Source: a virus (taxonomy: Duplodnaviria > Heunggongvirae > Uroviricota > Caudoviricetes). From it: a stretch of DNA of 40,925 nt. Made by a program: the position numbers and the translations under genes. This document shows, piece by piece, positions 1-34,533 of the stretch (the stretch's first letter is position 1; each line of letters begins with the position of its first letter). The stretch is taken from IMG/VR virus record IMGVR_UViG_2671180437_000016, positions 1 to 40,925 of that record. One strand, written 5' to 3'. The notes beneath the pieces were generated by a model. It made no database searches, had not been told where the DNA came from, and saw only the letters and a program-made list of their open reading frames with translations.

Positions 1-1251
1 GTGCTTACCGATACAAAATTAAAGAACCTCAAGCCACAGGACAAACTGTACAAAGTTTCCGATCGTGACGGGCTGTATGTAGCTGTGCTTACGTCAGGTA
101 CGGTCTCGTTTCGCTATGACTACCGTATCAACGGTCGCCGCGAAACACTGGTAATCGGGCAGTATGGGCGTGACGGTATCAGCCTGGCAGAAGCGCGAGA
201 AGAACTGATTGCTGCAAAGAAGCTGCTTAAAGCAGGCCAGTCGCCGGCTGCGGCTAAACGTGACGGTATCAAAAAGATTCGTGGTGCCGAGACGTTTGCG
301 GTACATACCGACAGTTATATGAAACACGTCATCCTGGCTGACAGTACCCGCGCAATGAAGCAGGCGGTGATCGACCGTGACATACTTCCGGTTCTTGGCA
401 ACAAAATGATGGCTGAAATTACCACATCGATGGTTCGTGATTTGTGTGACCGGATTGTCGAACGCGGTGGTCGGGCAACAGCAGTACAGGCCAGGGAGAT
501 CATCAGCAGCGTATACCGTCACGCCAATGACCGTGGTCATGGTTTGTTTAATCCTGCGGCTGACATTAAACCTTCGTCTATCGCCATATTTAAACCACGA
601 GAGCGAACACTGACACCAGAAGAAATTGGCCTGTTCTTCCGCATGCTGGATGCCATTGGTGCTATGGGCACTATGAAAATGGCTTTAAAGCTGGTGCTTA
701 TCACTATGGTTCGTAAAGGCGAATTCACCAATGCAACGTGGGATGAAATAGATTTTAAAAAATGGACATGGACAATTCCTTCAGACCGCATGAAGGGAAG
801 CCGGGCGCACGTTATTTACCTGCCTAAACAGGCACAGGATATATTGGTTGGGTTGCAGATGTGCGCAGGTGGAAGTGAATATCTGGTTCCTGGTCGTTAC
901 AATTTCCGGAAGCCATTATCTAATGCCGCGCTGAACTCTCTGATCGACAGAACGGTGAAAATAATAAATGAAGATGGTGAGCATATTCAGGACTTCACCG
1001 TACACGATATGCGCCGTACAGCAAGTACGTTGTTGCATGAGGCTGGTTATCCTTCAGACTGGATTGAAAAGGCTCTGGCACATGAGCAGAAAGGTGTGCG
1101 CGCCGTATATAACAAAGCGGAATACGCCAGACAGCGCGCCTACATGTTGCAGCAGTGGGCCGATATGATTGATTCCTGGATTAACGGGGAGCATACGGAT
1201 CTGATTCCGTTCTCCCCGTCGAAGTTTGAGAAGTGGATGGCGGGGGAATAA
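1..1251 (+). CDS. int: Tyrosine recombinase / phage integrase (P4-type); N-terminus may be clipped by window start
   Basis: 416-aa ORF; N-terminal 'LTDTKLKNLKPQDKLYKVSDRDGLY' arm-binding-like region, C-terminal 'HDMRRTASTLLHEAGY...VRAVY' catalytic region typical of tyrosine integrases; GTG at position 1. Confidence 0.9.
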   Translation: MLTDTKLKNLKPQDKLYKVSDRDGLYVAVLTSGTVSFRYDYRINGRRETLVIGQYGRDGISLAEAREELIAAKKLLKAGQSPAAAKRDGIKKIRGAETFAVHTDSYMKHVILADSTRAMKQAVIDRDILPVLGNKMMAEITTSMVRDLCDRIVERGGRATAVQAREIISSVYRHANDRGHGLFNPAADIKPSSIAIFKPRERTLTPEEIGLFFRMLDAIGAMGTMKMALKLVLITMVRKGEFTNATWDEIDFKKWTWTIPSDRMKGSRAHVIYLPKQAQDILVGLQMCAGGSEYLVPGRYNFRKPLSNAALNSLIDRTVKIINEDGEHIQDFTVHDMRRTASTLLHEAGYPSDWIEKALAHEQKGVRAVYNKAEYARQRAYMLQQWADMIDSWINGEHTDLIPFSPSKFEKWMAGE

Positions 1252-5178: not shown

Positions 5179-5210
5179 AACTTGTTACCTCGGTCTGTTA
5201 CCTCAGTCTG

Positions 5211-5225
5211 TTACCGTTGAGGTAA
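5211..5225. promoter_or_regulatory. Operator-like palindrome TTACC-GTTGA-GGTAA (OL-type site)
   Basis: Perfect TTACC-N5-GGTAA inverted repeat between repressor 3' end and early-left operon; preceded by tandem 13-bp repeats GTTACCTC(G/A)GTCT at 5184-5209. Confidence 0.6.
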
Positions 5226-5344: not shown

Positions 5345-5929
5345 TTATTGTTTGCTTTTTTCGTTCTGGTTGATGACAAATTCAATGTAACTTTCGATCT
5401 TTGCTTTCTCGGTTTCGGGTAACAATGCGTAGCGCGAGCGGTCATAGTTGATAGTCGCAGGGTCGTGCGGGTGAATCAGTAATTCATAGCCGTGACGCCC
5501 GAATGCGGATGCAACATTCTCCAGGGTGGAAATGGAAACGCTGACCTCATTGTTTAACAGGCGACTGATTGTCACCTGGGCGACGCCGGATGCGCGGTGA
5601 AGTTTTCCCTGCGTTGAAAGGTCGCGGCTTTCGCTCATCCAGCGTTCCAGGTTGTGAGCCGCCAGCTGACCAATGTCGCTTGGGCCGACAGGCTGAAAAC
5701 CTTCCTGAGAAAGCGAGCGATCGATATCAAGCCAGTTACGGGGTTTATTGGCGGCAGCTTCAATTTTTCGCGCAACCTGGTCGCCGATAACCTTCTTGCC
5801 AAGAGCCCAGCGGTTTACCAGATTTGCCTGAGTTCCAAGTTTTTCTGCCATCCGCGTCTGAACACCATTGAATTCACGGTCGATCAAGTCGTTGAGATTT
5901 TGCCTGCGGACGTCCTGGATACTTTTCAT
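5345..5929 (-). CDS. Prophage repressor (CI-like, two HTH regions, no recognisable S24 autocleavage domain)
   Basis: 194 aa, divergent from Cro-like gene across an operator-rich spacer; HTH-like segments 'MAEKLGTQANLVNRWALGKK' and 'ASGVAQVTISRLLNNEVSVSISTLENVA'; no Ala-Gly/Ser...Lys peptidase motif seen. Confidence 0.7.
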   Translation of the reverse strand: MKSIQDVRRQNLNDLIDREFNGVQTRMAEKLGTQANLVNRWALGKKVIGDQVARKIEAAANKPRNWLDIDRSLSQEGFQPVGPSDIGQLAAHNLERWMSESRDLSTQGKLHRASGVAQVTISRLLNNEVSVSISTLENVASAFGRHGYELLIHPHDPATINYDRSRYALLPETEKAKIESYIEFVINQNEKSKQ

Positions 5930-6336: not shown

Positions 6337-6358
6337 GACCGCCACCCGGCGGTCTTTT
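6337..6358 (+). terminator. Rho-independent terminator after Cro-like gene
   Basis: Stem GACCGCC/GGCGGTC, loop ACCC, followed by TTTT. Confidence 0.6.
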
Positions 6359-6369
6359 CATATCTATTC

Positions 6370-6384
6370 GTACCTCAAAGGTAA
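6370..6384. promoter_or_regulatory. Operator-like palindrome GTACC-TCAAA-GGTAA
   Basis: One-mismatch member of the TTACC-N5-GGTAA family, followed by AACC-N6-GGTT inverted repeat and T-run (6390-6413). Confidence 0.5.
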
Positions 6385-6464
6385 TAAAAAACCAAATCTG
6401 GTTGATCTTTTTTTTGTGTCAGCACAAAATAACCGTAATCCCAATACTAATGACAGGGCTTACC

Positions 6465-6680: not shown

Positions 6681-7496
6681 ATGAGCAGACATGCAACAGA
6701 TTGGGCCTGGGAGACAGATCCAGGTAGCTCGTCATTAAAGCTCATACTGCTCTCGATGGCTGACAGAGCCGATGAATATAACCTCTGCTACCCCAGCATA
6801 GAACGCCTCGTTAAAGACACTTGCCTGAATAAAAAAACCGTACAGGCCGGGCTTATATCGCTCATGAAAATGGGGCTTATTTCAGATACCGGAGAGAGAA
6901 AGGGTGCGACGAAAAGAGTGCGGGTTTTCTCTCTTAATATAACCAAAAACGGGAACATTAAAGGCAACCAGGAAGGGGAGAATGAACCCGAAAACGGTAA
7001 TGTTCCCGAAAACGGGAATATACCCAAAAACGGGATGTTGAATGATCCCAAAAACGGGATGTTGAATGATCCCAAAAACGGGATCCAGAACCAGTCATAT
7101 AACCAGTCATTTAACCAAGAGAGGGAGAGCAGGACAAAAACCGGGGATTCTGTGCCTCATGACCCCGGCGCAAACAACGCCGTGATGAATAACTTTGTTC
7201 CTCATGGTGGGCCAGGGCAATTAGGCAAATTTGTCATGCATGAACAATGGCAGCCATCAGATGACTTTCTTCGGAAAAGCTCATTGCAGGGAATCTACCT
7301 GGACAGTCTGCCAACGGCACAGGAACTTGCAGAGTTCAGAATTTACTGGATGGCTGAGGGTAAGGCATACCATCAGGCACAGTGGGAGCAGAAGCTGGCA
7401 AGGAGGCTGCAGATTAGCAGACAGAAGCAATCAACATTACCTGATAACAACGTTCCGCACTGGAACAGTCCTGAAGCATGGGAGGATTTCTTGTGA
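6681..7496 (+). CDS. Replication initiator (lambda O-like, N-terminal winged-helix) containing internal iterons
   Basis: 271 aa; N-terminal 'LKLILLSMADRADEYNLCYPSIERLVKDTCLNKKTVQAGLISLMKMGLIS'; repetitive 'ENGNVPENGNIPKNGMLNDPKNGMLNDPKNG' encoded by DNA direct repeats. Confidence 0.75.
   Translation: MSRHATDWAWETDPGSSSLKLILLSMADRADEYNLCYPSIERLVKDTCLNKKTVQAGLISLMKMGLISDTGERKGATKRVRVFSLNITKNGNIKGNQEGENEPENGNVPENGNIPKNGMLNDPKNGMLNDPKNGIQNQSYNQSFNQERESRTKTGDSVPHDPGANNAVMNNFVPHGGPGQLGKFVMHEQWQPSDDFLRKSSLQGIYLDSLPTAQELAEFRIYWMAEGKAYHQAQWEQKLARRLQISRQKQSTLPDNNVPHWNSPEAWEDFL
6987..7082. repeat. Iteron-like direct repeats (putative phage origin of replication) inside initiator gene
   Basis: Five copies of CCC(G/A)AAAACGG(G/T) starting at 6987, 7005, 7023, 7047, 7071; 24-bp unit CCCAAAAACGGGATGTTGAATGAT exactly duplicated; followed by AACCAGTCAT x2 (7089-7110). 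Confidence 0.65.
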
Positions 7497-8278: not shown

Positions 8279-8315
8279 TACCAGCGCGATAGCGCATTTT
8301 TTTACGCCTCGATAA

Positions 8316-8330
8316 TTACCTGACAGGTAA
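8316..8330. promoter_or_regulatory. Operator-like palindrome TTACC-TGACA-GGTAA
   Basis: Perfect TTACC-N5-GGTAA in spacer upstream of DUF1064 gene. Confidence 0.55.
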
Positions 8331-8377
8331 TAAAATATTCTAAAATCTATTGATTTCGTGTCTTATGTGGTTTTTAA

Positions 8378-8392
8378 TTACCTCAGAGGTAA
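8378..8392. promoter_or_regulatory. Operator-like palindrome TTACC-TCAGA-GGTAA overlapping ribosome-binding region
   Basis: Perfect site ending 4 nt before ATG at 8396. Confidence 0.55.
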
Positions 8393-8395
8393 ATC

Positions 8396-10547: not shown

Positions 10548-11617
10548 TCACTATTACCAAAGGGCGACTGCTGACAATCAAGCAGTGGCGCGAAACATAC
10601 GGACCGGGTAGCAACGTTGTACTGCCAGCAGAAGAAGCGGAAGAACTGGCACGGATTGCACTGGCATCATTGGAAGCAGATCCAGTTAAACGAGTTAACT
10701 CAGATCAGATGCACCGAGTCTGCTTAGAAGCTAATCGCTATTTAGATAAATATGACGCGATGGCGAAAGAGGTAAATAAGTTGCTTGGACGCATCGCCCC
10801 GCCAGCGCCAGTATTTAACGGCGAATACGGTGACGCATATCAGGGCGCACGGAAGACCTGTCCATCTGGAAACGGCGAGCGCTTGAAGCTGATGAGCACT
10901 TCCCGACTGGAGCAAATCAATGACCACATGTTGAAAGAGGCGCAGGGAGAATCACGCATGGGCGAGCCTGTAATACGTGAGCCAGCACCGGTAGTGCCTG
11001 AAGAAGCAACTCCGGAAAACGTAGAAATGCTCTCTGGCTATGTTTCAACGTACAAATTAACCGATAGCGAGCGCGATATTGCTGCCGAAATATGGAACGC
11101 CTGCCGCGCCGCCATGCTTCAGTCCGGAAACTTTCGGGAAAACAAGAATTCGTCAACCAATAATTTTCGGGAAATCGCGGAAACGTCAACCAACTATCCG
11201 GCAATTCCTAGTGAGGTGTTGTCCGCAATCCTGAAGGTTGCCAGGATTCGTGCCGATTTCGATGATTTTGACGGTGACAGGCGAGGTATCGGTGATTGTC
11301 TGGATGAGGCTGAGCAAGAGCTTATCGTTACCATTAACAAATATGCCAGTCAGTTGGCAGCAGAACCTATAGCGCCTAATGACGTTCGAGAGCAGACAGC
11401 CATTCCACAAGTTCCGGTAACTCCGGATGGTTGGATAAGCTGTAGTGAGCGAATTCCCGCTCAAGACGATTGGGTTTTAATTTATTCAAAGCACGGCGAG
11501 TATATGGCAGGACAGGTACAAGGGGAATACGTGGAGTTGAGCGACGGCACTTTATCGTGGTTAGGGAACGCCTTGTACTGGATGCTGCTACCAGAACCGC
11601 CGCAGGAGGTGAAGTGA
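10544..11617 (+). CDS. DUF551-domain-containing phage protein
   Basis: 357 aa; C-terminal '[28 protein letters not shown]' resembles DUF551. Confidence 0.6.
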
Positions 11618-11958
11618 TGGACTATTCACAGTTAAGTGATTTTGAAATTAACAGAATGGTAGGAGACATAATTTTTAAAGGCCTTTGGGCATGTAAACCG
11701 GAAACATCAGGGAATAACACCAACAAATGGTATTACGGAAATGCTGATACAACTTTTGAGCCATTAACCCCTTTACCTGACTACTGCAATGATCCGATCG
11801 CTTCATGGCCGATTATTGAGAAATACAGGATTTCTATCTTAGACCAGTTAACTGAATGGTGTGTGGATGCAAAAGACGTAAGACCAATATTTGATACCAG
11901 ACCTCTCCGCGCCGCCATGATTGTATTTCTCATGATGCAGGAAAATCAGAATGGCTAA
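11617..11958 (+). CDS. Hypothetical phage protein
   Basis: 113 aa from ATG 11617 (overlaps upstream stop TGATG); internal start of track ORF 11470..11958. Confidence 0.55.
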
Positions 11959-12289
11959 ATCAGCAGCAGAGCGCAAAGCCGCTCAGAGAGCCAGACAAGC
12001 TGCATCTGGTGTGCGTAAGATGGAGATTGTGCTTGATGCTCAGGAAATTGAAATGCTAGAGCGTAACTGTGCCACGCGTCGCCCCGGGCGTGCGCCTTAC
12101 GAATTTGGTGAGTATATAGCGTCACTGATCCGCCAGGATGATGCACGCGTGCGCGGGCGTATAAAATCGATCAGCAGAAAACGTTGCGGTAAGTGCGGCG
12201 AGAGAGTTCCAGTTAATTCATGCCCGTGCAATGGTGACTCGCAATGCTGGGTGACTAAAGGCTGGCATGAAACGAAATTAATAGTGTGA
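11951..12289 (+). CDS. Basic Cys-rich small protein, candidate late-gene regulator
   Basis: 112 aa; '[17 protein letters not shown]' zinc-ribbon-like; last gene before terminator and packaging genes; function inferred from position only. Confidence 0.5.
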
Positions 12290-12298
12290 CATGTCACG
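12285..12298. promoter_or_regulatory. 14-bp near-palindrome TGTGACATGTCACG (copy 1)
   Basis: Core GTGACATGTCAC (12286-12297) is a perfect 12-bp palindrome overlapping the stop codon of 11951..12289; recurs at 32512-32525 and, with one change, at 15361-15374. Confidence 0.5.
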
Positions 12299-12338
12299 AG
12301 TAGATTATGCATGATGAATTTGATGTGTTTTGAATACT

Positions 12339-12364
12339 GCCGCCAACTATGGCGGCTTTATTTT
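12339..12364 (+). terminator. Rho-independent terminator upstream of terminase small subunit
   Basis: Stem GCCGCC/GGCGGC, loop AACTAT, followed by TTTATTTT. Confidence 0.6.
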
Positions 12365-12407
12365 GCATGGTACTATTACCACAACGGTAACTATTACCAC
12401 GGTGGTT

Positions 12408-13004
12408 ATGATGCCTGCTGAACCTAAAACCTATAAACGCAAATCAACGCAATTTAAGCCACTAACAGCAATGCAGGAGGCTTATTGCCAGTCATACATC
12501 AAAACGCCTGAAAACCAGACTCAGGCAGCGATTAACGCAGGATTCTCCCCAAATACAGCGGCAGTTAAAGCCAGTGTAATGATGCGCGATGAACGTATTC
12601 AAAAACGGATTGCCGAGTTGATGGAGGAGCGCAACAAACGAATGCGCGTCAGTGCTGATTACGTTCTCATGCGCCTGGTGGAGATCGACCAGATGGACGT
12701 GATCGACATCCTCAACGACGATGGGAGCCTTAAGCCAATCCGCGAGTGGCCGAAAATCTGGCGCACTACGCTTAGCGGCTTTGATCTGTCATCGACCATC
12801 ATGAACATGAACGAGGATTCGATAGAGACAATCCTCAAAAAAATTAAATGGCCTGACAAGGTGAAGAACCTCGAACTGATTGGTAAGCACGTCGACGTCA
12901 ACGCATTCAAAGAACGCTTGGATGTTAATGTGAATGTGACAATTGCTGATCGCATAGCAGCAGCCAGGAAGCGACTCAAAGAACGTCAGGATGGCAATCA
13001 GTGA
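12408..13004 (+). CDS. Terminase small subunit
   Basis: Start at MMPAEPK (ATG 12408, GGTGG SD); the track ORF start at 12330 would read through the terminator hairpin; directly precedes and overlaps large terminase. Confidence 0.6.
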   Translation: MMPAEPKTYKRKSTQFKPLTAMQEAYCQSYIKTPENQTQAAINAGFSPNTAAVKASVMMRDERIQKRIAELMEERNKRMRVSADYVLMRLVEIDQMDVIDILNDDGSLKPIREWPKIWRTTLSGFDLSSTIMNMNEDSIETILKKIKWPDKVKNLELIGKHVDVNAFKERLDVNVNVTIADRIAAARKRLKERQDGNQ

Positions 13005-14476
13005 CAGATACAGCGTTATCTCCTGAAGAGCAGTTAATCGAGGATATTGCAGGGTTCACTCACGATCCGCTTGGCTATGCCCTCTATGCGTTCCCTTGGG
13101 GGGAAGAGGGGACTGAACTGGCACATGCTACCGGCCCACGTCAGTGGCAGGCTGATGCGTTCCGAGAGATACGTGATCACCTGCAGAATCCAGAGACGCG
13201 CTATCAGCCGCTTATGCTGGCACGCGCTTCTGGTCACGGTATTGGTAAATCCGCATTCATCTCAATGCTGATCAACTGGGGCATGTCCACTTGCGAGGAT
13301 TGTAAGGTCGTGGTGACCGCCAACACCGACAACCAGCTACGAACGAAGACCTGGCCGGAAATTATCAAGTGGTCGAACCTTGCTATCACGAAAGACTGGT
13401 TTACCTGTACCGCTACCGCGATGTACAGCAATGACCCTGGGCACGACAAGCGGTGGCGGGCTGACGCAATACCCTGGTCTGAGCACAACACTGAGGCGTT
13501 CGCCGGACTACACAACGAGCGCAAACGCATCATCGTGGTGTTTGATGAAGCGTCGAACATTGCGGATCTGGTGTGGGAAGTTGCCGAGGGGGCGCTTACG
13601 GACGAAGACACTGAGATTATCTGGGTGGCGTTCGGAAACCCGACGCGTAATACCGGACGTTTCCGCGAATGTTTCCGCAAATATAAACACCGCTGGAAAA
13701 CTGCGCAGATTGACAGCCGGACGGTGGAAGGCACTAACAAACAGCAGTTGCAGAAATGGGTTGATGACTACGGGGAAGACAGCGACTTCGTTAAAATCCG
13801 TGTGCGCGGCATATTCCCTGATGCATCTGAATTGCAGTTTATCCCTACCGGCCTTACTGACGAGGCAATGAAACGGGTGGTAACTGCTGCGCAGGTGGCA
13901 CATGCTCCGGTGATAATCGGCGTTGACCCGGCATACTCCGGCGTTGATGACGCTGTGATATACCTGCGGCAGGGGCTGCACAGTAAGGTGCTGTGGACTG
14001 GCAACAAGACCACTGACGATCTGATTATGGCGAAGCGCATCGCTGACTTTGAAGACCAGTATCAGGCTGACGCGGTATTCATCGACTTCGGTTACGGAAC
14101 CGGTTTGAAGTCAATCGGTGATGGCTGGGGACGTACATGGCAACTTGTTCCGTTCGGTGGCGCGTCTACTGACCCGCAGATGCTCAACAAGCGTGGGGAG
14201 ATGTTCAACTCATGTAAGACATGGCTGAGGCTGGGCGGTATGCTGGATGACCAGGAAACAGCGGACGACCTGTCGACGGCAGAGTACAAAGTTCGCGTGG
14301 ACGGTAAAATCGTTATCGAACCGAAGGAAGATATCAAAGAACGACTTGGGCGTTCGCCGGGGAAAGGCGATGCGCTATTGCTGACGTTTGCTTTCCCTGT
14401 GTCGAAGCGCCTGCGAATTCCCGGTCAGCAGAACCAGCAAGGCAAGGCCATCACAGATTACGACCCGTTTGCGTGA
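13001..14476 (+). CDS. Terminase large subunit
   Basis: 491 aa; Walker-A-like 'ASGHGIGKS', nuclease-domain 'VDPAYSGVDDAVIY'; GTG start overlapping terS stop. Confidence 0.85.
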   Translation: MTDTALSPEEQLIEDIAGFTHDPLGYALYAFPWGEEGTELAHATGPRQWQADAFREIRDHLQNPETRYQPLMLARASGHGIGKSAFISMLINWGMSTCEDCKVVVTANTDNQLRTKTWPEIIKWSNLAITKDWFTCTATAMYSNDPGHDKRWRADAIPWSEHNTEAFAGLHNERKRIIVVFDEASNIADLVWEVAEGALTDEDTEIIWVAFGNPTRNTGRFRECFRKYKHRWKTAQIDSRTVEGTNKQQLQKWVDDYGEDSDFVKIRVRGIFPDASELQFIPTGLTDEAMKRVVTAAQVAHAPVIIGVDPAYSGVDDAVIYLRQGLHSKVLWTGNKTTDDLIMAKRIADFEDQYQADAVFIDFGYGTGLKSIGDGWGRTWQLVPFGGASTDPQMLNKRGEMFNSCKTWLRLGGMLDDQETADDLSTAEYKVRVDGKIVIEPKEDIKERLGRSPGKGDALLLTFAFPVSKRLRIPGQQNQQGKAITDYDPFA

Positions 14477-14477
14477 T

Positions 14478-15218
14478 TTATTGCTTATTTTTCACGGCTT
14501 CAGCAATCATTCTCTCAGCCTGTGATGTATATGTTTTTCGCAAGGGTTCATGGCCCATATGCAATACGATACTTTCCTTTTCTTTTTCCTTTAATTCTTG
14601 TATGAGATTATTTATTTTGGCCTCCCTATCTTCAAGCATTCTGGCGGACTTTTCTGCCTCAATCTTTAACGCTGCAGCCACTGATTGCATGTTTTCCAGC
14701 TTCTTATTCAATTCCAAAACCTTATCGGAGAGCCTATCTCTTTCCGACGTTAGCTCACCCATCCTGGCCTGTGACTCCGTAATTCTTTCCTTCATAGCCT
14801 GTATGTCTTTTTCGGCGCCAGTCTTAACTTTGTCGTATGTCACATCGTGCTTTGCCTTCAGGCGCTGCAGGCGTGTGGCGCGATGAATGCGCTTGGCCTT
14901 CCGGTGGTTCTCTATCGAATCGTAATTATCAAGAGGTTTGGCTTGCCACTTTGAAATCACGTTGTTGATCCAGGGCATGCCGCCGCACAGGATTATTGCT
15001 GAAACACATGGGAATGCTAATACCGTTTTCCAACTGCTATTGCTGGAAATGTAGGTGATCTTGTCGATGATGCTGGAGTCGCTGAGGAGTAAGTATAAAA
15101 TCGACTTCCAGTTAAAGGCGCACCATGACAGTGCGAACGCTCCAAACACTGGATTTCTGACCCTTTGCGAAGCGGTATTAACGGTTGAAGATAGGTATTC
15201 TTTAAGTGATTCAAGCAT
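14478..15218 (-). CDS. Moron: predicted membrane-anchored coiled-coil protein of unknown function
   Basis: 246 aa on opposite strand inside structural region; visibly AT-rich; two hydrophobic segments ('VFGAFALSWCAFNW', 'VLAFPCVSAIILCGG') then long charged coiled-coil-like tail; own operator site upstream. Confidence 0.6.
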   Translation of the reverse strand: MLESLKEYLSSTVNTASQRVRNPVFGAFALSWCAFNWKSILYLLLSDSSIIDKITYISSNSSWKTVLAFPCVSAIILCGGMPWINNVISKWQAKPLDNYDSIENHRKAKRIHRATRLQRLKAKHDVTYDKVKTGAEKDIQAMKERITESQARMGELTSERDRLSDKVLELNKKLENMQSVAAALKIEAEKSARMLEDREAKINNLIQELKEKEKESIVLHMGHEPLRKTYTSQAERMIAEAVKNKQ

Positions 15219-15248
15219 GTCCAGGCCCTTTTAGGTTTTTTTCTGATT

Positions 15249-15263
15249 CTACCTTTAAGGTAA
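15249..15263. promoter_or_regulatory. Operator-like palindrome CTACC-TTTAA-GGTAA upstream of moron
   Basis: One-mismatch family member 31-45 nt upstream of moron start codon. Confidence 0.5.
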
Positions 15264-15360
15264 TCTTCGGTCATTATGAAAAACGTATCCCTATGAGGGG
15301 ATAATGTCGTTGATATCCTCTGATGAGGATAAAACAAAGCCAGCTTATCGGCTGGCTGTT

Positions 15361-15374
15361 TGTGACGTGTCACG
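15361..15374. promoter_or_regulatory. 14-bp near-palindrome TGTGACGTGTCACG (copy 2, one substitution)
   Basis: Differs from 12285-12298 by a single central A to G change. Confidence 0.45.
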
Positions 15375-15416
15375 ACATTAAAATCCATCGAATTCGTATT
15401 TCATGATTCACACCTT

Positions 15417-15440
15417 AAAAAAATGCCCGGTGAACCGGGC
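15417..15440 (-). terminator. Rho-independent terminator downstream of tRNA
   Basis: Stem GCCCGG/CCGGGC, loop TGAA, A-run on plus strand (U-run on minus); a second hairpin AGCCAGC/GCTGGCT at 15331-15364 has A- and T-rich flanks. Confidence 0.55.
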
Positions 15441-15603
15441 GAACTGGAAGCAATGAGTTATGCCTTCCGTGGCTGTACGGGTTTACAGCATGAAGTCATC
15501 GCAATGGCGTCCTGCTGTAAAAAGGGCGGTGATAGTCCTTCAATGGAAACCATCACCGCCAAGCACCTGGAACTTCTGGCATCACGGTCCTTAGGCGTGA
15601 TTC

Positions 15604-15680
15604 TGGCGTGGCATGCAGGATTCGAACCTGCGACCAACCGCTTAGAAGGCGGTTGCTCTGTCCAACTGAGCTAATGCCAC
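15604..15680 (-). tRNA. tRNA-Arg (anticodon UCU)
   Basis: 77-nt cloverleaf read on minus strand: acceptor GTGGCAT/ATGCCAC, D-arm GCTC...GAGC, anticodon stem ACCGC/GCGGT with loop CTTCTAA (anticodon TCT), T-arm GCAGG-TTCGAAT-CCTGC, discriminator G + CCA. Confidence 0.85.
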
Positions 15681-16002
15681 AACGCTGAGAGCACTTAGCC
15701 TGTTAAGGCGCCACACTTTGTCGCGGCTCCATAAATGCTCTCATCGTTGTACCCTCGTCTCTTCCGAGGCGTCACACCGAATCGCCGGGATGGTGTATCC
15801 CCGTGCGCGGAATAAAACCGCTCGACTTGCACATTCCGGCTACCTGGTTCGTTTGCCCGAGCAAGGGAGGGTGCCCCTTAAACGTATCCAGACCGCTATC
15901 GGCGCATGTGCCATACGCCGTACTGCTCAAAATAAAAGCTCACTCCACCTGTTTAATTTAACGACAAGCCAGTCAGGTTAATAACCGGAATGAACTCTTT
16001 GC

Positions 16003-19013: not shown

Positions 19014-20000
19014 ATGGCTGTTAAAGGCTTAACTGCGCTAACGCTGGCTGACTGGGGTAAGCGCGTCGATCCAAACGGGAAAGTCGATAAGATTATCGAG
19101 CTTCTCGGTCAAACTAACCCGATCCTTCAGGATATGCCTTTTGTCGAAGGGAACCTTCCTACCGGACACCGAACCACCATTCGTTCTGGTTTACCTTCAG
19201 CTACCTGGCGTTTGCTGAACTATGGCGTACAGCCAAGCAAATCAACCACAGTGCAGGTAACCGATTCCGTTGGCATGCTGGAAACCTATGCTGAAGTCGA
19301 TAAGTCACTGGCTGATCTGAACGGCAATACCGCCGAATTCCGCCTGTCTGAAGACCGCGCATTTATTGAAGCGATGAATCAGCAGATGGCGCAGACGCTG
19401 TTTTATGGTGATTCCAGCGTTAACCCTCAGCAGTTTATGGGACTGTCCTCCCGCTATTCCAGCCTGTCTGCGGGTAATGCTCAGAACATCATTGATGCTG
19501 GTGGCACGGGTACAGATAACACCTCTATCTGGTTAGTGGTGTGGGGCGAAAACACCGTGCATGGCATCTTCCCGAAAGGGCAGAAGGCTGGCATCCAGAT
19601 GGAAGATAAAGGCCAGGTGACACTGGAAGATGCGAATGGCGGCAAGTACGAAGGCTACCGTACCCATTACAAATGGGACAACGGGCTTGCTCTGCGTGAC
19701 TGGCGTTATGTTGTTCGCATTGCAAACATCGATGTCAGCAATCTTTCAGAACCTTCCTCTGCCGCAAATATTGCGAAGTTGATGGTTAAAGCACTGCATC
19801 GCATTCCAAACCGTGGCATGGGTCGCCCGGTGTTCTACATGAACCGCACTGTAGGCCAGGCTCTTGATCTGCAATCTCTGGAGAAAACATCTCTGGCGAT
19901 CAGCGTAAAAGAGACAGAAGGCGAGTGGTGGACGTCATTCCGTGGTGTACCAATCCGTGAAACTGATGCGCTTCTGGAAACAGAAGCCCGCGTGGTGTAA
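19014..20000 (+). CDS. Major capsid protein
   Basis: About 328 aa; strong SD AGAGGAA 6 nt upstream of ATG 19014; position after scaffold; stem-loop GTGGGTC/GACCCAC at 20016-20035 follows. Confidence 0.8.
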   Translation: MAVKGLTALTLADWGKRVDPNGKVDKIIELLGQTNPILQDMPFVEGNLPTGHRTTIRSGLPSATWRLLNYGVQPSKSTTVQVTDSVGMLETYAEVDKSLADLNGNTAEFRLSEDRAFIEAMNQQMAQTLFYGDSSVNPQQFMGLSSRYSSLSAGNAQNIIDAGGTGTDNTSIWLVVWGENTVHGIFPKGQKAGIQMEDKGQVTLEDANGGKYEGYRTHYKWDNGLALRDWRYVVRIANIDVSNLSEPSSAANIAKLMVKALHRIPNRGMGRPVFYMNRTVGQALDLQSLEKTSLAISVKETEGEWWTSFRGVPIRETDALLETEARVV

Positions 20001-32095: not shown

Positions 32096-32509
32096 ATGAA
32101 GGAATTATTGCTGTTATCGGTATTTTTGATATCCGCTTGCTCGACATCCTATGATGTTTATGACGGTGTTGATAAGGCATATTGCGACAAAGTTAAAATG
32201 GATTTTTCTCTTGCCAAGACGGCGAAGGATAGTTGTATTGATCACTACGTCAAGACTTATACCAAGCCAGCATCATCGGCATCTGATATTGCTGAAGGTG
32301 CTGTGTTTGAGTGTAACAAGGTGATATCCATCGCAGCGAGTTCTTCATACGATGCTGCTGTATGTGCAATGGCTGAAAGAAACGGCATGTCAGTGCAAAA
32401 AGTTAATAGCATGATAAACAGTAATGACGAAGCCAAAATAAGAACTGATATCAGCTCGGTGAAAAAAGATGCCATGAACAGAGTTGTAAAATATCAGTCA
32501 TCTTTATAA
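32096..32509 (+). CDS. Predicted lipoprotein (cargo; candidate superinfection-exclusion factor)
   Basis: 137 aa; signal peptide with lipobox 'LISAC'; SD AAGGAA; immediately after ejection-protein genes; followed by palindrome and terminator. Confidence 0.6.
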   Translation: MKELLLLSVFLISACSTSYDVYDGVDKAYCDKVKMDFSLAKTAKDSCIDHYVKTYTKPASSASDIAEGAVFECNKVISIAASSSYDAAVCAMAERNGMSVQKVNSMINSNDEAKIRTDISSVKKDAMNRVVKYQSSL

Positions 32510-32511
32510 GT

Positions 32512-32525
32512 CGTGACATGTCACA
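32512..32525. promoter_or_regulatory. 14-bp near-palindrome CGTGACATGTCACA (copy 3, inverted relative to copy 1)
   Basis: Exact reverse complement of 12285-12298; core 32513-32524. Confidence 0.5.
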
Positions 32526-33580: not shown

Positions 33581-34267
33581 TCAGAAGAACCCTGCTTTGT
33601 CGTTGATATACTCCGCGTGGGTCTGGATATCACGCAGGCATTTGCTCACACCGACGATGTAGCAGAACATGGTGGTCAGCTCCGCCGCCGCGCCCGATAC
33701 GTCGTGCCCGTCTTCCTGTAACTGGTTCAGCAGATTCATCAGCAGTGAGTTCTCCGTCAGGCCGAGAACACCAGACGGCGAGTGAATCAGACTGCGGTAG
33801 CCGGGCTTTAGTGGGGCGCTGTAGGTTTTGTTCTCTATCTTCATTGCCTGCATCACTGCTGATGCTGTGGCGTTGGCTACCTGGTCGGCAACCATCTTTA
33901 TGCGTTCTTCTTGCGGGAGCGAGTTTTTAATGTAACTTCCGGTGCGGCGGATCTGAGGAAGAACCTCACCTGTAACCCATTTACGAAAGCGGTATGGGAT
34001 AGTGCCTGGTGTCACCGCATCGCGGCAGCGGAGGATCAGTGTGTAGAGGCCTGACTCGTTGATAATATTGGTTTCGCCTTGACGGCCTAAGTTAAATTTA
34101 GCCCTTTCATCATCATCAAGAGATTTTATTGACATAGTGGGGTTTGTCAGTTGAAGAGCTTTAATAACGTCTTTGGCAACAAACCAAGGATTTCCATCAA
34201 TAACAATGGCTCGAATGGTTGCTTCTGATTCAAAATGAAAAACAGATGGGGTTACGTTAGCAGTCAT
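33581..34267 (-). CDS. Antirepressor (BRO-N domain N-terminus, Ant-like C-terminus)
   Basis: Start at MTANVTPSVF (ATG 34267, SD AAAGGTGA); 'VFHFESEATIRAIVIDGNPWFVAKDVIKALQ' is a BRO-N signature; C-terminus homologous to 35413..35670 product. Confidence 0.7.
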   Translation of the reverse strand: MTANVTPSVFHFESEATIRAIVIDGNPWFVAKDVIKALQLTNPTMSIKSLDDDERAKFNLGRQGETNIINESGLYTLILRCRDAVTPGTIPYRFRKWVTGEVLPQIRRTGSYIKNSLPQEERIKMVADQVANATASAVMQAMKIENKTYSAPLKPGYRSLIHSPSGVLGLTENSLLMNLLNQLQEDGHDVSGAAAELTTMFCYIVGVSKCLRDIQTHAEYINDKAGFF

Positions 34268-34533
34268 AGTGATCACCTTTGTAGTTAGGTTAATCACCAC
34301 TACCGACGCCAATCGGTTGGTGGTGAACTGTGCAGGGTTGGCGTAACCGGCTACAAAGGACCCGGCGCACCTTTCGGTGCCCCCACACAGCCCACCATAG
34401 AATAGGTGCGCTTTACACATAAAAAAACCGCTTATGCGGCATATGTGCCCCTGTAGTAATCCGGGACGCCAATCCCGGCACTGGATTTTGCCAGTACCCG
34501 ATTACTATGGCACAAGAGGAGTGCAATGTAAAT

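Follow-up and report, generated by a model that had tools for sequence, protein, structure and literature searches.

We analysed the junction between the early genes and the packaging genes of an epsilon15/phiV10/SPC32H-like prophage (podoviruses, genus Uetakevirus and relatives). The prophage is contained in IMG/VR record IMGVR_UViG_2671180437_000016, whose whole stretch of 40,925 nucleotides (nt) is called the window here. The junction (12285-12413) lies directly upstream of the small terminase gene, terS. We consider it likely that the junction consists of an intrinsic terminator, a terS promoter (P_terS) and two operators of the immunity repressor Rep, and that a palindrome just ahead of them is a separate module, most likely the binding site of the 112-amino-acid (aa) protein encoded by the preceding gene. 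Escherichia phage TL-2011b is 99.9% identical across 11578-13100, and many E. coli genomes contain similar prophages. The features of the junction and the repressor gene are as follows.

5345..5929, minus strand: Rep, prophage repressor (homologue of PDB 5D50), presumed binder of O-a and O-b
11951..12289, plus strand: 112-aa gene, last gene of the early-right operon, of the epsilon15 gp49 / N15 gp46 / ZF40 gp22 family
12286..12297: perfect palindrome of 12 base pairs (bp), GTGACATGTCAC, containing the TGA stop codon (12287-12289) of the 112-aa gene
12298..12338, plus strand: 41-nt spacer, not conserved in comparison with relatives
12339..12364, plus strand: intrinsic terminator of the early-right operon (hairpin and T tract, from scan and folding)
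12368..12376, plus strand: putative extended -10 element of P_terS, TGgTACTAT
12375..12391: candidate operator O-a, ATTACCacaacGGTAAC, one mismatch to ATTACC-N5-GGTAAT
12393..12409: candidate operator O-b, ATTACCacggtGGTTAT, one mismatch to ATTACC-N5-GGTAAT
12411..13004, plus strand: terS, small terminase (Pfam Terminase_2, E = 1e-29), with an alternative start at 12408

Candidate Rep operators upstream of terS

The initial annotation had pointed to an 11-bp sequence, ACTATTACCAC, that is directly repeated just before terS, and had suggested a late-activator site or an element for terminase binding or packaging. The two copies are exact, at 12372-12382 and 12390-12400, and 0.27 exact 11-mer repeats within 30 nt are expected from the shuffled window. 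We found that they are instead part of two tandem 17-bp inverted repeats of the form ATTACC-N5-GGTAAT, arranged as ATTACCacaacGGTAAC-t-ATTACCacggtGGTTAT, a motif that is also present at the immunity region. The 11-bp unit is the left half-site of each operator together with its flank, and it is repeated exactly because both operators have one mismatch to the motif. O-a and O-b are separated by one base and lie 18 bp apart from centre to centre. O-a overlaps the last two bases of the putative -10 hexamer, which are its own first two bases, and the predicted +1. O-b covers the Shine-Dalgarno (SD) sequence GGTGG (12401-12405) and the first ATG of terS. The sequence ACTATTACCAC was rejected as a repeat unit of its own, since its matches elsewhere do not exceed chance (11 against 6.6 expected with up to two mismatches); the true motif is the 17-bp inverted repeat. 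Rfam and tRNA scans gave no match within 12285-12413.

The operator consensus was taken from sites annotated in the curated epsilon15 record NC_004775.2. Seven sites in this record carry the label 'protein_bind repressor', and all were found to share ATTACC-N5-GGTAAT once extracted. One of them, at 12..27, lies directly upstream of terS and is the orthologue of O-a. Scanning the window with up to one mismatch uncovered 13 copies of the motif against 0.03 expected, all of them intergenic and each heading a transcription unit.

5210/5272 and 5984: OL and OR, beside the repressor gene
8315/8377: further operators
12375/12393: terS operators
16002: portal-unit operator
33499 and 34533/34626: antirepressor-region operators
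35746: tail fibre operator
37727: lysis operator

Judged by their motif, the repeats are thus putative operators of a known and partly characterised immunity system, and the epsilon15 record already lists the orthologous site. The pairs 5210/5272 and 8315/8377 are each 62 bp apart and bracket a promoter with -35 and -10 elements, a spacing that would fit a tetrameric repressor bridging two sites. We also observed that the half-site GGTAAC occurs three times with a 13-bp period in OL (5183-5215).

The product of the open reading frame (ORF) 5345..5929 is a full-length homologue of the SPC32H repressor Rep (PDB 5D50; E = 3.5e-42 over residues 1-190 of 194), and SPC32H has the same motif at OL, at OR and upstream of terS. 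According to the summary of Kim et al. 2016 given in PMC9638917, Rep is a tetramer on palindromic DNA, with pairs of DNA-binding domains contributed by different dimers, and is dismantled by the tetrameric antirepressor Ant. In the ZX5 paper, in which the sites were not mapped, overexpression of the repressor lowered holin and endolysin transcripts by more than 99.9%.

An ATTACC-type operator was found immediately upstream of terS in epsilon15, Tyrion, a Klebsiella prophage and prophages of ten further species, with no exception. The Rep proteins of these relatives are 41-73% identical. Across them the half-sites are kept and the N5 cores differ (ACAAC, AAAAC, ATAAC, TAAAA, AAAAT, TTCAT, ATATT and GCGCC). 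A heteroimmune Proteus prophage (L113), with a Rep of 36% identity, contains no ATTACC-type site. It has its own motif, ATAACC-N5-GGTTAT, beside its repressor gene, with five sites against 0.025 expected (up to one mismatch), and one site of this type, ATAACCaaagaGGTGAT, is directly upstream of its terS, which is still homologous (50% identity). In this single lineage, the operator motif appears to covary with repressor specificity, as is expected of an operator.

The same observations bear on a pac-like function, in which the direct repeats would be the recognition site of the small terminase. Their position immediately upstream of a Terminase_2-family terS would suit such a site. In SPP1 (pacL) and lambda (cosB), binding sites of the small terminase adjoin the 5' end of the terS gene, and this counts in its favour. 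However, a packaging signal should be unique, and the 17-bp motif is found at 11 other places, centred on the immunity region and on promoters. Moreover, the heteroimmune relative, with its different repressor type, has a different motif although its terS is still homologous, and the starts of deposited genomes scatter over the equivalent of window positions 12290-12365, apparently by the annotators' choice. We regard a terminase recognition site as highly improbable.

The preferred assignment as Rep operators was also compared with polymorphism among 88 close relatives, which gave 21 haplotypes. Variation falls on the N5 cores and the base between the operators and, within the extended -10 element, on the 'n' of TGn and hexamer position 3 only. 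Varying positions made up 7 of 17 sites predicted to be free and 1 of 28 predicted to be constrained (Fisher p = 0.0026).

A putative terS promoter

A terminator just before the packaging genes had been taken to imply either antitermination or a downstream late promoter. The second of these is the part that stands: a downstream promoter fits because an extended -10 element is conserved between the terminator and terS, even where the hairpin is lacking. The element TGnTA[C/G]TAT was found without change in all 12 relatives that have ATTACC-type operators, three of which are without the terminator hairpin. In the window, TG (12368-12369) and one further base directly precede the hexamer TACTAT (12371-12376), which has the A at position 2 and the T at position 6. 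The register of -10 and operator is the same as at PL (5210; TTGACA-17-AATTAT|TACC) and at the 8377 promoter (TTGATT-17-TTTAAT|TACC), both of which carry good -35 hexamers. Transcription from P_terS is predicted to start near 12383, with a leader of about 25 nt that would contain the SD sequence GGTGG.

The terS frame begins at ATG 12408 or at the adjacent, in-frame ATG 12411. The start is likely to be 12411, since two related haplotypes destroy ATG 12408 (to ATT). Several database records give a longer terS; that of phiV10 begins at a TTG equivalent to window position 12330.

The putative promoter lacks a -35 element, which would suit direct repeats that bind a dedicated late-gene activator recruiting RNA polymerase, and the early-left operon includes a gene for a PerC-like 'transcriptional activator'. 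Yet the repeats lie downstream of the -10 element, over +1 and the ribosome-binding site, which is the position of a repressor, and their motif is identical to that of the operators flanking the repressor gene. An activator site therefore has very little probability in our view.

Apart from a weak shared motif, no common promoter architecture was identified for the other late units. This motif, similar to CATATGTGGTT(T), occurs at 8362, 16059, 35791 and 37775 (plus strand), 28-40 nt downstream of a Rep operator, and heads four rightward units. The statistics are weak (9 matches to CATATGTGGTT against 4.0 expected with up to two mismatches). Given its TGG followed by a T-rich hexamer, the motif may be the extended -10 element of late promoters.

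Terminator and spacer

The terminator at 12339-12364, noted previously, was found by the scan and is supported by folding. A 7-bp stem with six GC pairs (GCCGCCA, 12339-12345, and TGGCGGC, 12350-12356) encloses the 4-nt loop ACTA and is followed by the tract TTTATTTT (12357-12364). Its folding energy is -13.8 kcal/mol (z = -4.25), and none of 200 shuffled sequences was equally stable. The hairpin is a credible intrinsic terminator that would close the early-right operon just before terS. It is kept with the terS module in most relatives, absent from L090 and L095, in which an inserted ORF ends just upstream, and not evident in L114. As the -10 element and the operator are kept in these three loci, the terminator is dispensable and the promoter-operator core is not. 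A terminator followed by one or more operators is also found on the rightward strand at ~6340-6385 and ~8290-8393. This recurring design, together with the operator at the portal unit (16002), suggested that the terS junction is one of several Rep-gated boundaries.

The initial annotation had proposed lambda PR'-tR'-like logic for this terminator. A constitutive promoter upstream of the hairpin would then produce a short terminated RNA, and an antiterminator, possibly the product of 11951..12289, would permit read-through into terS. The order of regulator gene, promoter-like match (GTGACA-18-CATGAT), terminator and late genes does resemble Q-PR'-tR', the early genes end with the 112-aa gene, and the palindrome also adjoins two other terminators on the rightward path. 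Several observations speak against this proposal. The early-region proteins that were scanned include no detectable member of the Q or N families, and the annotations of TL-2011b, phiV10, epsilon15, Tyrion and SPC32H list none either. The promoter-like match (12286-12315), the sole one upstream of the terminator, has 9 of 12 consensus positions and extends into the spacer, which is unrelated in epsilon15 and Tyrion and has indels in close relatives; it was rejected as a PR'-like promoter because it is weak and not conserved. The terminator, as described above, is dispensable. The 112-aa gene and the palindrome are also present in P2-like phages and in lambda-like, N15-like and ZF40 phages, the latter three with Q-like proteins of their own. 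Finally, the distance between palindrome and terminator ranges from 23 nt to more than 350 nt. Antitermination of this kind is accordingly not supported, and we consider it improbable.

The AT-rich stretch between palindrome and terminator is present, as described before, and corresponds to the 41-nt spacer (12298-12338). Close relatives differ in it by indels, and epsilon15, Tyrion and SPC32H have an unrelated sequence in its place. The Klebsiella prophage and some 24 E. coli prophages have an additional ORF between palindrome and terminator, and in L005, L090 and L091 a full ORF of ~85 aa fills the place of the spacer before terS. The window spacer keeps the last codons of this ORF. In many relatives a near-perfect LexA box, TACTGTTTAAATATACAGTA, is located within a promoter (TTGACT / TATACT) right after the palindrome (L005, the Klebsiella prophage, at 19672-19995; L090, L091, L095, L096 and L101-L103). 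In L005, L090 and L091 this promoter would drive the ~85-aa ORF, which would be an SOS-controlled gene at the boundary of early and late genes. Because the spacer is unrelated or indel-bearing among relatives and replaced elsewhere by the LexA-box promoter and ORF, it is probably a deletion relic of the two.

Within the spacer lies a mini-ORF of eight codons.

12307-12333, plus strand: mini-ORF MHDEFDVF*, ending 5 nt before the terminator stem

Its translation could mask the 5' arm of the hairpin and let early transcripts enter terS, as in ribosome-mediated attenuation. The reading frame is kept in E. coli, Klebsiella, Scandinavium (L094) and Superficieibacter (L093), with the peptides MHDEFDVF, MRDEFDGF and MTDEFDGF. 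On the other hand, 6 of ~45 close relatives carry a frameshift in it, and the spacers of epsilon15, Tyrion and SPC32H lack it. The mini-ORF matches the 3' end of the longer ORF in relatives and is therefore probably a relic. Attenuation is a side possibility to which we give hardly any weight.

A palindrome linked to the 112-aa gene

A 14-bp palindrome had been described at 12285-12298. The palindrome is at this place, but its length was overestimated: the 14-mer TGTGACATGTCACG is asymmetric at its ends and the perfect part is 12 bp. The window has eight perfect 12-bp palindromes, against 9.8 +/- 2.9 in shuffled sequences, and there is no excess. It is the recurrence of this palindrome that goes beyond chance. 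Two further copies were found in the window.

15362..15373: palindromic variant GTGACGTGTCAC, 4 nt from the bidirectional terminator 15338-15357, after terL and a moron
32513..32524: exact copy, between the final gene of the structural unit (ORF 32096..32509, whose stop is 3 nt upstream) and the terminator GGCCGCaaaaGCGGCC-TTGTTTTT (2 nt downstream)

The three copies are at orthologous places in epsilon15, phiV10, Tyrion and SPC32H, with diverged flanks. The palindrome is not specific to the entry of the late operon. An RNA-level role is unlikely because the hairpin it could form has only -2.9 kcal/mol (z = -0.4).

We found that GTGAC-N2-GTCAC marks the 3' end of the 112-aa gene family in unrelated phages. 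A diverse set of 38 loci from different species (710 kb) contained 58 copies of exact GTGACnnGTCAC against ~0.7 expected, with at least one copy in 37 loci. In 23 of the 38, the motif overlaps the stop codon of the 112-aa gene or lies within ~20 nt of it. The arms are fixed and the central dinucleotide is clade-specific (AT, CT, GC or TG). In the lambda-like phage Chlobot the palindrome is 6 nt past the stop of the homologue, and in ZF40 it is 2 nt past the stop, with two further copies elsewhere. In N15, GTGACTGGTCAC overlaps the gp46 stop and has a second identical copy elsewhere, and in a P2-like Yersinia phage a pair of palindromes lies 3.4 kb downstream of the gene. A reverse scan of sampled viral contigs with the 14-mer placed 40 of 127 matches at the 3' end of a homologue and 26 at the epsilon15-type second and third sites; it is partly confounded by coding coincidences (Q-type genes starting MRDMSQ) and truncated loci and has supporting use only.

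The 112-aa protein matches phrog_536 ("transcriptional regulator") in PHROG (4.5e-54). It has a basic N-terminal region with a predicted beta-alpha-alpha order and a C-terminal Cys4 zinc-ribbon-like motif, and the invariant residues of the family include C40, RR43-44, PY49-50, LIR59-61, C79, C82, C91 and C99. As the palindrome is a family-wide tag of its gene, the protein probably binds the palindrome. The simplest reading of the comparison is that gene and palindrome move together as a cassette. The palindrome string was not found in a literature text search, and as far as we checked the linkage is undescribed. It provides a concrete candidate ligand for a family labelled "hypothetical" in hundreds of prophages, and is probably the more useful lead of this analysis.

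Further exact palindromes of the clade-specific type occur in coding regions of N15 (L009; 2235 and 8267, in repA) and ZF40 (L007; 5125 and 7622, in gp08 and the cII-like gp12) and may be further targets of the protein family. Three viral contigs (L145, L193 and L231) have dense, iteron-like arrays of GTGAC/GTCAC half-sites around a full palindrome.

In the epsilon15-like group, the palindrome lies close to terminators, and a role as an insulator or in read-through would be compatible with this location. When bound at GTGAC-N2-GTCAC, the 112-aa protein might modulate adjacent terminators as a roadblock, an insulator or a loading site for antitermination, adding temporal control at the three operon ends to the control by Rep, which this proposal would complement. 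In epsilon15-like phages, each of the three copies has a unit-ending terminator 2-41 nt away, the order of stop codon, palindrome and terminator is also found in unrelated prophages (L097, L099 and L101-L103), and the motif is ~85-fold enriched around the 112-aa gene. In the diverse set, however, only 14 of the 58 copies have a terminator within ~45 nt. Often the palindrome directly precedes the SD sequence or ATG of the next gene or a LexA-box promoter, as an ordinary operator would, with no terminator. Site pairs in Yersinia and Providencia, 32-33 bp apart in promoter-like AT-rich DNA, likewise look like ordinary operators. We judge modulation of terminators to be rather unlikely. A broader proposal is that phrog_536 and GTGAC-N2-GTCAC form a self-contained cassette that moves among unrelated temperate phages, and that in epsilon15-like phages the protein, as the last early product, acts at the palindromes beside the three rightward terminators and controls read-through as an insulator or an antiterminator. 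It is speculative to a similar degree. If true, late-gene control would gain a second layer, a temporal one, of a type undescribed in model phages.

Proposed regulation of the terS junction

Taken together, the preferred reading divides the junction into two separable modules. Module 1 (12339-12413) would travel with terS, and module 2 (11951-12297) would comprise the 112-aa gene and the palindrome. That they can be separated is suggested by phages of the lambda-like, N15-like and ZF40 types, into which the palindrome follows the 112-aa gene, by gene-bearing P2-like genomes, in which copies are located elsewhere, and by the ORF insertions between palindrome and terminator described above. In module 1, the terminator would stop early-right transcription, and P_terS would be a weak sigma-70 promoter with an extended -10 and no -35. 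In a lysogen, a single Rep tetramer is proposed to sit on both operators at once, covering the -10 and +1 at O-a and the DNA of the SD sequence and start codon at O-b. Bound there, Rep would shut P_terS and block transcripts that read through past the terminator. Upon induction, the antirepressor would dismantle Rep and free P_terS along with the early-left, early-right, portal, tail fibre and lysis units. The packaging genes would then be gated directly by the immunity repressor and not by a lambda-like Q switch.

Several points weigh against this reading. The 'repressor' features of the epsilon15 record are predictions of its annotators. The covariation in the heteroimmune prophage comes from one lineage and amounts essentially to one half-site base. 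At a spacing of 18 bp, O-a and O-b do not face the same side of the helix, in contrast to the usual pairs 62 bp apart. O-b overlaps the SD sequence, and its match (GGTGG/GGT) is thus possibly in part a translation signal. It is also less conserved than O-a, with two mismatches in epsilon15, four in the Klebsiella prophage, where it is degenerate, and a spacing of 20 bp in L095. P_terS was not called by the promoter scan and its -10 element matches at 4 of 6 positions; because a recognisable -35 is lacking, its strength is uncertain, and it could be very weak or activator-dependent. The 112-aa protein gave no match in Pfam, NCBIfam or PDB sequence searches, and neither Pfam nor PDB reveals a recognisable DNA-binding domain in it. 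An AlphaFold2 monomer model of it, built from a shallow alignment, has a strand at 25-26 and helices at 30-42 and 52-67 with low confidence (pLDDT 65.7). A Foldseek search with this model gave nothing, a result that is meaningless because of the low confidence of the model.

If the preferred reading is correct, the packaging, head, tail and lysis units of this phage group appear to be connected directly to Rep and Ant. This could be of use for interpreting induction, for annotating prophages and for engineering Uetakevirus prophages of E. coli, Salmonella and Klebsiella.

Comparison with known systems

The closest known system is that of SPC32H Rep/Ant and the epsilon15 sites, which shares with the window the full-length homology of Rep, the 17-bp operator and the set of locations, including the one upstream of terS. 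The window also has a Bro-N antirepressor-like gene. Two differences were found. The terS site of the window is a clear double operator, of which the second copy is weaker in epsilon15 and SPC32H, and its antirepressor region has C4/isrK-type RNAs, whereas SPC32H has a short ant gene in place of such a module.

The C1 repressor of P1 binds asymmetric 17-bp sites as a monomer, its operators are scattered over the genome, and the late genes of P1 require the activator Lpa. The window resembles P1 in that a single immunity repressor would serve many dispersed units and in having what looks like an antirepressor regulated by a C4 antisense RNA. In contrast to P1, its sites are symmetric, the operators are directly at late units, and the repressor is an unrelated double helix-turn-helix (HTH) protein, described as a tetramer in the summary cited above.

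Compared with Q, PR', qut and tR' of lambda, the window likewise separates its last early gene from the late genes by a terminator and has a small regulator gene immediately upstream, but the elements that are conserved in it follow the terminator and match the immunity operator. As at OR and OL of lambda CI, which binds in cooperative pairs and forms long-range loops, symmetric 17-bp operators overlie -10 and -35 elements. They also occur in pairs (62 bp at PL and 8377, 18 bp at terS), an arrangement to be expected of an oligomeric repressor. The late genes of lambda are not bound by CI, whereas at least five structural, packaging and lysis units of the window have an operator.

The 112-aa protein resembles the ribbon-helix-helix (RHH) proteins Arc, Mnt and CopG in its small size, basic N-terminus, predicted strand-helix-helix and palindrome of 12-14 bp, and in the pairing of its sites 32-33 bp apart in some genomes. 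It differs in its additional Cys4 zinc-ribbon-like tail and in giving no RHH sequence or profile match in Pfam or PDB. The embedding of the site in the stop codon of its own gene is also unusual.

Other features of the window

The gene order was derived from ORFs, Pfam and annotated relatives. From the left, the integrase is followed by the leftward early operon and the repressor gene 5345..5929 (minus strand). The rightward early operon contains DnaT/P-type replication genes, Ead/Ea22, DUF551, NinX (11614..11958) and the 112-aa ORF. After the spacer come terS, terL, a leftward moron with a tRNA-Arg and a unit extending from the portal to the injection proteins. The right part of the window holds the antirepressor region, the tail fibre and the lysis genes.

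The moron between terL and the portal unit (14478-15700) comprises a leftward ORF of 246 aa (14478..15218), a tRNA-Arg(TCT) at 15604-15680 (minus strand) and three stacked leftward terminators, and its content varies between TL-2011b, phiV10 and SPC32H. Tandem repeats of 18, 24 and 12 bp at 6986-7117, within the DnaT/HTH_36 replication-initiator gene (6681..7496), are probably origin iterons. Matches to the Rfam C4 antisense RNA (79.5 bits) and isrK (73.5 bits) were found at 34316-34497 (minus strand), at and just upstream of the 5' end of the Bro-N antirepressor-like ORF (33581..34420, minus strand), and the region is flanked by the Rep operators at 34533 and 34626. It looks like a P1-type, C4-controlled antirepressor module within an epsilon15-like prophage.

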